A stretch of DNA of 64,000 nt from Eledone cirrhosa (lineage: Eukaryota): positions 9,052,001 to 9,116,000 of the forward strand of contig OZ024761.1 in the NCBI GenBank assembly GCA_964016885.1, given 5' to 3'. Positions 30,186 through 61,869 of this stretch are shown here, piece after piece. Both the position numbers and the translations under genes were made by a program. The first letter of the stretch is position 1. Each line of letters opens with the position of its first letter. A model generated the notes under the pieces. The model ran no database searches. It saw only the letters and a list, made by a program, of their open reading frames with translations, and was not told where the DNA came from.

Positions 30186-30386
30186 AACGAAGGAATTGTG
30201 GTAAGGAACCAGATGGACCATAACGCACCAGAGTACTCAATACTTAGGGTAGTAGAGTGGATAATAGGAAAAAGTATGACGCCGACGGCAGCGCTGAAGC
30301 CGTTTCGACGGCTATTCTAGAGAATAGGTCTAGAAATAGCCGTCGAAACGGCTTGAGCTTTGCCGTCGGGGTCATACTTTTTCCTA
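30186..30386 (-). mobile_element. Fold-back element family H1 with partial hammerhead
   Basis: Inversion centred on gacggcta...tagccgtc, followed by GAAA-cggc...gccg-TC-gggg. The CUGANGA half is absent. Confidence 0.8.
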
Positions 30387-30459
30387 CATATATATATATA
30401 TATATGTGTATGTGTGTGTGTGTGTGCATATATATATACACACACACATATATATTCTT

Positions 30460-30675
30460 GACGATCGACTTTCGTCAAATCGGACCGAGGGAACAATGTT
30501 TCCGTTGGTCTTTCCAATTGCTAATACTATCTATTGGTCGCAACTCCAGGTAGAAGGAGCAACGTGAAATAAAGTGTCTTGCTCAAGGACATAACGCATC
30601 GCCTAGTCCAGGAATCGAACTCACAACCTTATGATTACGAATCCAATTCTCTAACCACTCAGCCACACGCCTTCA
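30460..30675 (-). mobile_element. SINE family 1
   Basis: Near-identical to 6945-7158. Confidence 0.85.
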
Positions 30676-32503
30676 CATATATATATATACATATAATTAA
30701 ATAGATACACACACACACACACATATGTATATATATATGTATATATATACATATATATATAATATATAATTATATATATATGTGTGTATATATATAATTA
30801 TATATATGTATATATATAGGGGGAGGGTCATATTTGTGTAATATATATATATATATATATATACACATATATATATACATATATATATATACATATATAT
30901 ATATATATACATATATATATATATATATATATACATATATATATATACATATATATATATATATACATATATACACATATATATATACATATATATATAT
31001 ACATATATATATATATACATATATATATATATATACATATATACACATATATATGTATATACATATATATATATATACATATATACACATATATATATAC
31101 ACACACATATATATATATACACATATATATATGTATGTATATATATATATATATATATATATATATATATATATATATATATATACATACATATATATAT
31201 ATATTTATATATATATACATACATATATTTCATCAATTATTCCTGATGAAAATCTATGAAGAGACGTCTCCCTCAATATAAGTGTACATGTATATATATA
31301 TATATATATATATATATATATATCTTACGTTAATTATTTTCCATTTTGATGTTATAGTCACTTATATATTATGATATGAAATACTGTTGGCTTCTTACTC
31401 ACAATAATTTCTATATTTTCATATATATATATATATATATATATATATATATATATATATATATATATATATATATATATTTATATATATATATATATAA
31501 AAATGTAAGTATGTATACGTACATACATATATGTATACAAACGTATAGTAGTATGTATATATATACATACATGCACACACATATATATATATGTACGTAT
31601 GGGTTTACCGAACATTTATTATAATGTTCGTTTTGTTTGTAAACAAACAGCCCGAATTACGCCGTACAGTGTTCGACGACCATTGTCGCCTTTTTGTTTA
31701 ACACTGACACAGGAACGATGTACTAGTTTCAAGCTTATTAGCTATCGTCAGCATCGTATATCTTCCTGTCAGATAATTGAACGTTTGAAAGTATATACTT
31801 TCCTTATGTATATTAACGGCTGAGCAGATTTGTCGCAAAATTGTAAACAAAGATAAAAAGAAACGTTGTTAATATAATTTTACACAGAAAAGCATTAATT
31901 TATGTATGTGGTGTGAGTATATTTATTCTAATACAGATCTAAAAAAATCTCGTCATGTTTTAATATCACGAAGAACACAAACGATGTATTCTGAGATAGG
32001 AACATAAAGACAGGATGGTCACGGCAGGCATGTCATGGCTTGATCAGAGCTGAACAACTTACTCTATCTCTATTGGTGGTCGACCCATTTGTTAGAAATA
32101 GTTGCCAAATTCCTGTTAGGTTAGGAGCGCCAATTAGCTGCAAAACATTGGGTCGTCAAGTATGAAATTTCTAGAAAAAAAACGAATTTCTACAAATTTC
32201 ATACTTGATGACCCTATATATATATATATATATATATATATATATATATTATATATATATATATAGTAATAATAATAAATTTGTTATTTTAATAAATATA
32301 TATATATATATAATAAATATTTAATAAATATATATATATAATCTGTTATTTTAATAAATATATATATATATATAATCTGTTATTTTAATAAATATATATA
32401 TATATATATAATCTGTTATTTTAATATATATATATATATATATATATATATATATATATATATATATATATATATATATATATATATATATACATATATA
32501 TAT

Positions 32504-58657: not shown

Positions 58658-58685
58658 TATATAATGTCCATATATATATATACAG

Positions 58686-59530
58686 ACCAGTAACCACACA
58701 ATCAGATGTATATATATATATATATATGTATACCCATAAAGAAACACACAATCATATATATAAACACACACCAGTAACCACAGAATTAGATGTACACATA
58801 CACACACACACACACACACACACACACACACACACACACCAACAACCACACAATCAGATGCACACACGCACACACACACACACACACACACATACACCAG
58901 TAACCACACAATCAGATGTACACACACACACACACACACATACACCAGTAACCACACAATCAGATGTACACACACACACACACATACACACACACACACA
59001 CACACACACACACACATACACCAGTAACCACACAATCAGATGTACACACACACACACACACACAGCCACATAATCAGATGTACACACATACAGACACACA
59101 CAACCAGATAATCAGATGCACACGCACACACACACACCAGTAACCACACAATCAGATGTACATACACACACACAACCACATAATCAGATGTACACACACA
59201 CACACACACCAACAAAAACATAATCAGATGTACACACACACACACACACCAATAACCACACAATCAGATGTACACACACACACACATACACCAACAACCA
59301 CACAATCAGATGTACACACACACACACACCAACAACCACACAATCAGATGTACACACACACACATACACCAACAACCACACAATCAGATGTACATACACA
59401 CACACACACATACACCAACAACCACACAATCAGATGTACATACACACACACACACCAATAACCACACAATCAGATGTACACACACACATACACCAACAAC
59501 CAGACTAGTAACCACACAGTCAGATGTACA
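58686..59530. repeat. Minisatellite accagtaaccacacaatcagatgta plus variable (CA)n
   Basis: About 20 units visible. Confidence 0.9.
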
Positions 59531-61194
59531 TATACACACACACACAGCAACAAGCATGTATTCATACACACACATGCACACATACGCACGCGCACACACA
59601 CATATATACTCCATATATACACCAGCATTCATATATATATATATATACACACACACCATCATCCAACCAATACACCCACTCACACCAACCACCATGCCCT
59701 TATATATATATTATATATACATATATACATATATACATATATACATATATACATATATATATGGTGGCTGCCAACTCGTTTTCGAGTACGGCCACTACTT
59801 TATATCCATGTAGAACCCCTACCGATGCGCTGAACGAGTGTGACTTCTTAGTCCTGCCAGTGACTTGAAAACTCTGGTACAAACACTACACCTGTGACAA
59901 TTACTGACACATAGTGCTGGGCCCATGGTACCATGTGATGACAAGTGCAGAGAGATCTCCAGATATAAAGCAATGCCTGTGCCGTCAAGCTCCCATAGTG
60001 AGCAAAGGCACTGCACAAAGCCAGTCCCACTCTCTTAACCAAGATGATATTTACCAAAAAGAAGAACAAGTCAACATCATTGGATACCATCGGGGTTGCA
60101 GGTGTTATATCAGAGTTTTCCTTCTCCTAGAATTCTGCCTTGACAAAGGCTAAGGGGTCATCTCTCCCTGTGATTTTGGATGGCCATTGACTCTTAAGAG
60201 CTCCTTTGCCCTTTGACAGGTTTTGTTTTTAGTCCTGCAGGATGTCCAAAGTCACCCTCCTCACCAAGAAACCTTGGTGGGGTTGCCAGTTTAGTCGCCA
60301 ACGACCCGACCATGAGTCAGGTTGTACTGGGATACATGTTACCAGTAGCACCAACTGGTGACCTGACCTACATATATATACATATATATATACATACATA
60401 TATATATACATACATATATACATATATATATATATATATATATATATATATACATATATACATATATATATATATATATATATATATACATATATACATA
60501 TATATATATATATATATATATATACATATATACATATATACATACATATATACATATATACATATATATATATACATACATATATACACACATATATATA
60601 TATATATATATATATATATATATATATATATATATACATATATACATACATATATATATACATACATATATATATATATACATACATATATACACATATA
60701 CATATATATATATATATACATACATATATATATACATACATATATATATAAATATATATATACATATATACATATATACATATATATATATATATATATA
60801 TATATATATATACATATATACATATATATATATATATATATATATATATATACATATACATATATGCATACATATATATATATACATATATGCATACATA
60901 TATACATATATATATATATACATATATACATATATATATTAATACATATATACATAAATATATATATACATATATGCATATATATATATATATACATATA
61001 TGAATACATATATACATAAATATATATATATATATATATATATATATATATATATATATATATATATATATATATATATATATATACATATGTACATATA
61101 TATATATATACATATATATATATTTATATATACATATATACATACATATATACATATGTATATATATATACATATATATGTATATATACATATA

Positions 61195-61869
61195 ATAATA
61201 TATAAGATCAAAAGATGGTTAAAAGAGTTCCATGTATTTTATTATGCGCATTTCAAAAACAAATATCATCATGCAATAACATTTGCGTTTTCATTTAATA
61301 ATACATATCAACAATTTTTTTCCATCGCACATATTATTAAACCCTTAAATATTATTCTTAATACATATTAACAATTTCTTTTCATCGCACACATTATTAA
61401 ACCCTTAAATATACAAGCCTTAATTTAACATTATTCTAAAATTTTTCTCTTCGTTAATTTTCAAATTCTTTTAATTTATATATTATCTTCTAACGGTTTT
61501 TCAACCTCTCTATGTAAAACAATATATTTTTCTCAGTTATAAAAGCTATCTATCTCTCTCTATCACCCATCTCTCCTATCTCATCCTTCCTCATTAAAAC
61601 TACTTTTCATATGTTGATTTAAAACTGCACTATTCACAAGTGTGTTTTAACCTTCATATCATGTCTCCCTATTTTATCTGACGAAAACGCAAATGTTATT
61701 GCATGATGATATTTGTTTTTGAAATGCGCATAATAAAATACATGGAACTCTTTTAACCATCTTTTGATCTTATATATTATTTATACTCCAGTCCTACAAA
61801 CTGTAGAGTGCTACTTATCCGATATCTGCATTGCTTTATTGTCCTACAATAAAACTCACCTCCTACATA
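61195..61869 (+). mobile_element. Family A copy: inverted arm 61195-61294, hammerhead at 61670-61740
   Basis: tattttat-CTGACGA-stem II-GAAA-tgcgca-TA-ataaaata; same 3' end as the copy at 14995. Confidence 0.88.

Follow-up and report, generated by a model that had tools for sequence, protein, structure and literature searches.

Two family-fixed ends, and a candidate start signal beside them, in inverted inserts assigned by motifs to Hydra-clade Penelope-like elements of Eledone cirrhosa

Inserts between (TA)n runs

The DNA analysed here, called the window throughout, is a stretch of 64,000 nucleotides (nt) of Eledone cirrhosa (assembly GCA_964016885.1, contig OZ024761.1, positions 9,052,001 to 9,116,000 of the forward strand); it has 32% GC and hundreds of (TA)n runs, in a genome of 3.0 Gb. 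Our subject is a set of inverted inserts lying between these runs and belonging to four families, A, G, H1 and H2, whose motifs place them among the Penelope-like elements (PLEs). An earlier note on the window had listed nine copies and proposed that independent copies of a family end their inverted arm at the same internal site. All nine were found, each between (TA)n runs and with outer flanks that are all different; their layout is a sense arm with a tail, facing an inverted arm without a tail. We call the end of the untailed arm the “second site” and the stretch between the second site and the tail end the “tail”; “second site”, the “motif 1” and “motif 2” of the following sections and our family numbers are labels coined in the present analysis.

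Three H1 inserts lie on the minus strand. The first (30187-30387) comprises an untailed inverted arm (30332-30386), a sense arm and a tail of about 78 nt, with TA runs on both sides; its motif 1, ACTC...GAGT followed by ACT (30232-30258), lies 5-8 nt past the second site. The other two occupy 45026-45191 (motif 1 at 45071-45097) and 53768-53911 (motif 1 at 53813-53839), the latter with a very short inverted arm of about 10 nt. Where the earlier note gives ...ttccta(t) as the common ending of H1, two copies read TTCC followed by TAT and one TTCCTA followed by C. Family A is represented by a minus-strand insert at 14995-15423, made of a palindrome (15086-15423) and a 91-nt tail, with candidate hammerhead cores at 15137-15183 (−) and 15326-15372 (+) and motif 1 at 15051-15078 (−), and by a plus-strand insert at 61194-61866, with an untailed arm (61194-61292), a long sense arm including 3′ untranslated region (UTR) and an 85-nt tail, its candidate hammerhead core at 61678-61724 and motif 1 at 61785-61812. 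Both family G inserts are on the plus strand: 37108-37311, with a hammerhead-like core (37171-37194) and motif 1 (37243-37291), and 39053-39206, in which the sense arm is deleted. The CTGAAGA of the former copy was created by the junction, the template itself reading CAGAAGA. The H2 inserts are found at 43592-43779 (+; candidate hammerhead core 43651-43673, motif 1 43717-43738, 75-nt tail) and 44739-45003 (−; motif 1 44784-44805), and their ends, said to agree within about 5 nt, are 6-7 nt apart by our measurement. A further H2 3′ end at 55266-55401 (−) has a tail but no inverted arm (candidate hammerhead core 55371-55393, motif 1 55306-55327). Different PLE families stack inside one TA run at 44739-45191, as they also do in the fetched loci L310 and L320.

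The window also holds a long Hydra-type insert of 6.2 kb (45408-51614, +) that was absent from the earlier note. Its untailed arm (45408-46249) is 99.8% identical to 50637-51477, and its 3′ end carries a 137-nt tail (51478-51614) with motif 1 at 51485-51568, starting 7 nt past the second site. Within it lies a 5′-truncated PLE open reading frame (ORF; 46195-47970, +) of 591 amino acids (aa) from stop to stop, its coding part beginning near 46250, which carries a reverse transcriptase (RT) with YRDD, a CxCX5C linker and a GIY-YIG-like endonuclease with CxxC and CxH. Two further families show the same layout on the minus strand: 52710-53220, a 422-bp palindrome with an 89-nt tail (motif 1 52766-52793), and 16641-17178, with an 82-nt tail (motif 1 16678-16716).

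Classification of the elements

By upstream walking, ORFs contiguous with the inserts were recovered for family A (L111, 771 aa), H2 (L301, L311) and G (L305, L306, L317). H1 was linked to endonuclease fragments only (L112), and the N-terminus of its ORF was not found in the fetched loci; it is probably non-autonomous, since the endonuclease in its 3′ region (L112) carries a deletion. The linked ORFs carry RW[RIC], DKT, YRDD, CxCX5C, CxxC and CxH, and no CCHH: the first motif reads RWI in A, RWR in H2 and RWC in G, and DKT is found in all three; CxCX5C is present in A, H2, G, an H1-type ORF (L308:670-1305) and the window ORF; CxxC and CxH are present in the same set apart from G, whose C-terminus is cut off. 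The endonuclease is C-terminal to the RT, unlike that of Naiad/Chlamys, which is N-terminal. According to the accessible text of PMC8557442, the Hydra clade is recognised by an RWK-like motif, DKT in place of DKG, CxCX5C, CxxC, CxH and the lack of CCHH; it inserts into (TA)n and includes Hydra-1_Obim from Octopus bimaculoides. On these motifs, we place A, G, H1 and H2 among the Hydra-clade, endonuclease-containing (EN+) PLEs.

Other lines of evidence bear on the same proteins. A structure model of the H2 ORF has a pLDDT (predicted local distance difference test) of 96, its top 7 Foldseek ranks are all telomerase RTs, and the protein has 468 relatives at E<=1e-30. Pfam returned nothing at E<=0.01 for the window ORF 46195-47970, so that GIY-YIG was assigned there by motif and alignment; a sequence search of the PDB gave 2 weak matches and no PLE structure. 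Tandem junctions of pseudo-long terminal repeat (pLTR), tail and ORF occur in L111, L311 and L306, and inverted pLTR pairs are found throughout. Pattern matching suggests a hammerhead core (CUGANGA..GAAA) in A and H2 and its CAGAAGA variant in G; an Rfam scan showed no hammerhead in the best 150 of 406 matches, which were spurious sub-threshold microRNA hairpins. The unit is about 3.6 kb long in A and H2, with long 3′ UTRs. A TA run follows the tail end in 117/124 cases for H1, 59/61 for A, 50/60 for H2 and 39/49 for G, the exceptions including tandem read-through, other microsatellites and divergent relatives.

Two other classes were considered. A miniature inverted-repeat transposable element (MITE) or another DNA transposon, which would be a unit of constant length with symmetric terminal inverted repeats, is ruled out by the one-sided tail, the variable length and the RT ORF. 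Non-LTR retrozymes are tandem hammerhead-bearing units in the available part of the preprint that describes them (bioRxiv 10.64898/2026.07.22.740005); the present inserts are single and inverted and form no tandem arrays.

Ends of the inserts across the genome

Tails were surveyed in 1,214,000 nt chosen without regard to the families (the blind sample): the window, the adjacent 200 kb, eight 100-kb blocks and fifteen 10-kb blocks. An insert was counted when an inverted match, free of TA runs inside, abutted TA at one end and stopped 11-250 nt from it at the other; set aside were 170 inverted matches with neither end flush to TA, 23 with the far end more than 250 nt from TA, and 15 flush at both ends, 9 of these 15 forming a single satellite block. 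The survey yielded 95 inserts in 40 families, in which one arm is flush to (TA)n and the other is longer by a family-specific tail. At about 80 simple inverted inserts per Mb (95 in 1.21 Mb, not all of them Hydra), such insertions contribute heavily to the palindromes of this genome.

The idea that copies of a family share a fixed outer end was borne out. The H1 tail measures 77-81 nt in 21 of 24 blind-sample copies, and in family A, searched genome-wide with the tailed arm as query, 29 of the 30 loci share one stopping site for the inverted arm; H1 arms retrieved by an upstream query end at either of two sites in all 20 cases (8 tailed, 12 untailed). The G tail alone found no match in the genome, and a longer G query succeeded. 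Over all fetched data, the 3′ ends abutting TA fall at the second site, at the tail end or elsewhere in 65, 56 and 0 cases for A (n=121), 52, 60 and 1 for H2 (n=113), 90, 99 and 1 for H1 (n=190), and 25, 31 and 4 for G (n=60); the bimodal shape of these tallies is informative but the ratio is not, because tail-selected loci are included. Each family thus has two 3′ ends, and the tail, about 60-170 nt across families, is the spacing between them. Mapping of ends on a single template under-extends subfamily variants (A at position 55, G at 66, H1 at 53), and overlaps at these places were not used.

Outer ends are tighter than inner ones: a median absolute deviation (MAD) of 0-3 nt is found in all of the 8 largest families but G (MAD 20, n=3), against 2-79 nt for the length of the shared arm. 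It had been claimed that inner junctions differ in every copy. Their sequences are indeed mostly distinct (35/39 in H1, 17/18 in H2, 8/8 in G, 14/23 in A), but groups of A copies share a junction and junction positions are clustered: most short arms stop about 10 nt or less from the start of the candidate hammerhead core, or of the stretch matching it in H1. Short arms ending <=25 nt from that start number 45/50 in H2, 36/49 in G and 119/126 in H1, counts that are partly query-biased. These stops, near the 5′ strand of the core, are likely RNA 5′ ends. A look-up of transcripts listed none for the 5′ region of H2, which says nothing about expression. Since most inner junctions are unique in sequence, and outer flanks differ, we agree with the earlier note that the copies are separate insertion events and not duplications.

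Some copies depart from the common pattern. A family A subfamily (near 15255 in the window) stops about 70 nt further up, with additions that look templated, and L111:8813-9040 holds three tandem H2 tails plus the first bases beyond, possibly the trace of repeated template jumps between the two sites.

A motif at the start of the tail

The tails of unrelated families open with RCTC, followed 10-76 nt on by its complement GAGY and usually then by RCT. Motif counts use 39 of the 40 families, as family 17 is an arm nested in family 1 and was excluded beforehand. An exact RCTC..GAGY pair starting <=18 nt from the second site is found in 15 of the 39 families, against 0.4 in shuffles (18 of 39 when any copy is counted, not only the first), and RCTC alone in 24 of 39 against 5.5 expected, with a peak at 0-10 nt from the second site. 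When pairing is not required, R and Y still agree in 16/16 families (10 A-T, 6 G-C; p=1e-4, a value inflated by kinship between families). Five families (A, G, H2 and two others) yielded a full-length 5′ region, and each has a second copy, motif 2, between the tail end and the ATG. Ends of A fall 2-12 nt before motif 1 in 62/65 cases and before motif 2 in 56/56 (118/121 together); the corresponding counts for H2 are 42/52 and 57/60 (99/113). The long window insert, which stands outside the motif counts, fits the rule with its 7 nt.

Inspection by eye also shows the motif in consensi from the literature: as a tandem pair before the ATG, at the 5′ end, in the sea cucumber Hydra-1_Ajap, once after the hammerhead in Hydra-2_Ajap and in the coral Hydra-2_Amil, in a GCCC/GGGC version at the 5′ end of the copepod Hydra-1_Crog, and only in imperfect versions in Hydra-1_Amil and Hydra-1_Obim. 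Two motif-less tailed families link to a different, CCHH-type endonuclease, so that the motif looks clade-specific while the tail does not. The literature searched held no earlier description of the motif; subscription papers, figures, supplements and Repbase could hold one.

Our reading, to which we assign a probability of about 0.65, is that the inserts are ends of Hydra-clade PLEs and that their arms stop at two family-fixed points just before RCTC...GAGY, a motif predicted from its sequence to form an RNA hairpin, which likely marks the starting point for the copying enzyme. One has to keep in mind several points that weigh against it. The conserved stem has only 4 bp, with loops of 5-76 nt, and predicted pair probabilities span 0.05-1.0. 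No exact pair is found in 21 of the 39 families, some of which belong to other clades and some of which are decayed, most not being assigned, and in three families the offsets of the motif reach 11-17 nt. In H2 the second motif departs from RCTC, reading GCAC/GTGC, and L311 has a mutated version of it; the five-family count excludes H1, for which no full-length 5′ region turned up and which also has only the GAAAC..GUC half of a hammerhead and no CUGANGA (e.g., L322:1600-1700). Lastly, overlap with the TA run is enriched here, as detailed below, whereas the lizard element PAc primes without homology (PMC11167929, in its accessible part), and the shared subfamily of the two arms, also given below, could equally be explained by one active master per cell or by gene conversion.

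Since the stem is short and the predicted pairing uneven, the motif could be read as DNA. The endonuclease would then cut a double-stranded intermediate just upstream of the motif, the untailed end being a resolution cut and not a priming site; short inverted repeats are what a dimeric DNA-binding protein would be expected to recognise, and the Drosophila virilis endonuclease needs the tail for recognition (Pyatkov 2004, as cited in the accessible part of PMC11167929). This is the main rival, but we consider it unlikely: a spacer of 5-76 nt is easier to accommodate as the variable loop of an RNA stem than between DNA half-sites, the same motif stands past the tail end, in a place that most inserts do not contain, and both tail boundaries of the lizard element are RT starts in vitro (PMC11167929, same part).

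Overlap with the TA runs

The earlier note had ascribed the second site to annealing with the (TA)n target by microhomology. For each untailed end we counted the nucleotides of overlap between template and TA run, and joins placed elsewhere on the template served as the comparison. At least 3 nt of overlap were found in 18 of 40 families (4.7 expected with a random phase, 9.2 with the best phase), and the mean overlap was 2.3 nt, against 1.0 (random phase) and 1.75 (best phase, p=0.006); the tail end shows an equal modal overlap of 2-3 nt in A, H2 and G. The overlap is thus enriched, but it is short, occurs at both ends and does not set the position. The score is 0 nt in 29 of 95 inserts, some of these being artefacts of strict scoring; the main second site of H2 has <=1 nt of overlap and takes 28 of 52 ends, while a site 7 nt upstream with 5 nt of overlap takes 11; and equal or better TA tracts are left unused within the tail in 27 of 39 families, e.g., tracts of 7-8 nt in G.

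It is therefore improbable, and more so than the DNA signal, that microhomology alone fixes the second start through an AT-rich patch of the RNA annealing to the nicked (TA)n. The enrichment, the minor H2 end and the TA-like patches ahead of both motifs in several families speak for it; the H2 main site, the unused tracts and the zero scores speak against it, as does PAc, which needed no homology to its target in vitro (PMC11167929, as accessible). The position of the second site follows the RCTC...GAGY motif and not the AT patch, and TA pairing helps without placing it.

Pairing of the two arms

Head-to-head pairs combine one tailed and one untailed arm in 155 of 167 clean pairs; 3 are tailed on both sides, 3 on neither, and 6 are unclear. 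Without the tail-selected loci, the figure is 56 of 65, and the 61 clear pairs give p=3e-12. The two arms are within 40 nt of each other in 128 of the 153 pairs measured, the tailed arm being longer in 14 and the untailed arm in 11. The untailed arm is far longer in L114 (2462 vs 650 nt), L309, L115 and L112, reaching 2.5-2.8 kb opposite 0.65-0.74 kb; the H2 case among the longer-untailed pairs, L211, looks like an alignment artefact. Each insertion thus has one tailed and one untailed arm, and the greater length can fall to either. In H1, the two arms share their subfamily in 51 of 53 inserts, against 19 when shuffled.

These lengths bear on fold-back self-priming, in which the cDNA started at the tail end would fold on its palindrome, copy itself and stop short of the tail. 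Short inserts are mostly near-symmetric, the arms share subfamily variants, and self-priming was proposed for rotifer PLEs (PMC3846280, accessible part). The untailed arm is nevertheless more than 40 nt longer than its partner in 11/153 pairs, the excess reaching 2.1 kb and including ORF sequence missing from the tailed arm, 12 of 20 long H1 arms are untailed, and the fixed stop is left unexplained. Because the untailed arm is far longer, fold-back is excluded for those cases, and it could survive for some short copies; as a general account, we hold it to be very improbable, and both it and microhomology alone fit worse than the DNA signal.

Segmental duplication, a MITE moving as a unit and later tail deletion through TA microhomology, for which identical junctions in A groups of 4, 4, 3 and 2 could be quoted, are rejected except for these small junction-sharing groups, as flanks and chromosomes differ, most junctions are unique, pairs with two tails are rare (3 of 167), among young copies too, stronger tracts of TA are passed over and RT/endonuclease ORFs are attached.

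A possible course of insertion

If the hairpin does position the starts, insertion would most likely proceed as follows. The GIY-YIG domain would nick both strands of a (TA)n run, and one ribonucleoprotein, probably a dimer, would bind both hairpins of a single RNA, a short way ahead of the ORF. Each nicked strand would prime a cDNA about 2-12 nt upstream of one hairpin, the exact start base being selected by 1-4 nt of pairing with the TA primer. Both cDNAs would then pass the uncleaved hammerhead toward the RNA 5′ end, the downstream cDNA displacing the upstream one, and most would end close to the hammerhead core, where the RNA itself probably begins. Finally, the cDNA 3′ ends would join and copy each other, giving an inverted repeat with a tail on one side.

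A more specific version is programmed twin priming, in which one RNA with two RCTC...GAGY hairpins, a motif seen from coral to cephalopod, would dock one protomer of an RT-endonuclease dimer on each, so that both TA strands prime together. We regard it as tentative, at slightly less than even odds. If it were true, the inverted repeat tailed on one side would be the normal product and the answer to second-strand synthesis, and the spacing of the hairpins would set the tail length.

Relation to known systems

An inverted, 5′-truncated copy with a tail of 30-40 bp at one end is standard PLE anatomy (PMC8557442). In the lizard Poseidon element PAc (Anolis), two internal RT starts bracket the tail in vitro; AT-rich DNA is cut on both strands, each of which is then extended, hammerhead RNA serves as template without being cleaved, and a dimer is predicted (PMC11167929). 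As the tail and the two internal RT starts were already published, the core observation of the earlier note is a rediscovery; its suggestion that the family-fixed second end behaves like a second priming site agrees with the published tail boundary. The clade and the fixed second end were thus known, and the present analysis adds the twin motif, a strict rule of one tail per pair and a measurement of the microhomology. PMC8557442 names the origin of inverted, one-side-tailed PLE insertions as an open question, and PMC11167929 leaves the steps after priming unvalidated.

The published Hydra clade resembles our families in having the RT before the GIY-YIG domain, the motif set, a (TA)n target and a tail at one end; it has a hammerhead in the pLTR, where our families show candidate or partial cores. 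The differences are a tail of about 60-170 nt here against 30-40 bp given there for PLEs, and a unit of about 3.6 kb in A and H2 against less than 3 kb; PMC8557442 ascribes the tail to endonuclease resolution and, in its accessible part, does not mention the tandem motif, although it is visible in its consensi. PAc shares with our families the two starts bracketing the tail and, as far as the scheme above holds, cutting and extension of both strands, an uncleaved hammerhead template and a dimer. Its starts, however, lie inside the ORF, in one AC-rich stem-loop, whereas those proposed here precede the ATG, and each is followed by a separate copy of the motif and has a modest TA overlap; the accessible part of PMC11167929 does not address the origin of the inverted arm or the one-tail-per-insertion rule. 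The Penelope of Adineta vaga (PMC3846280, accessible part) likewise has inverted pLTRs, one of which may carry a 31-bp tail, and palindromes where the inverted copies meet; that work invokes self-priming from an antisense template, and the long untailed arms found here argue against a simple fold-back.

If the twin motif is a start signal, it would be the first sequence-defined cis-element for internal PLE priming found in the literature searched; it would account for tail length and for the one-tail rule, and would give curators a rule for Hydra boundaries. A further parallel is the twin priming of L1, in which both target strands prime cDNA, the second primer annealing internally, and an inversion results. 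The second site of L1 is variable and its cDNAs do not overlap, whereas here the site is fixed per family and the same sequence is copied in both arms.

Other features of the window

The 3′ end of a non-Hydra PLE lies at 22660-23541 (−), and its GIY-YIG domain (Pfam GIY-YIG E 0.007) contains two Cys and two His residues; in the blind sample, this element (family 4) has a fixed tail of about 58 nt and no RCTC motif. A frameshifted PLE ORF of another clade, which we take to be Neptune-like, occupies 32520-34551 (+; RVT_1 E 1e-6, CxxxxCxxC-type linker); beside it is a palindrome (32150-32214) with a relative at 36762-36843. Other inverted sequences include a perfect 188-bp palindrome at 38613-38800, centred on a TA run and hence of opposite geometry with TA inside, and an inverted family (39235-39824, with blocks on C14 and C4) that abuts short TA runs on both sides and showed no tail. 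An RT fragment of long interspersed nuclear element type, 478 aa long, lies at 18641-20074 (−; RVT_1 E 5e-23). Arrays of a 41-bp satellite in both orientations cover 5879-6642 and 23583-25987. A young family of about 185 bp and 90-95% identity, similar to short interspersed nuclear elements and presumably close to those of octopus, is present at 4274-4465, 16952-17138, 34725-34913, 36420-36606, 37504-37689, 40243-40441 and 58379-58562. Finally, a 1.1-kb repeat, 95-99% identical, is found in opposite orientations at 8368-9464 and 27206-28300.

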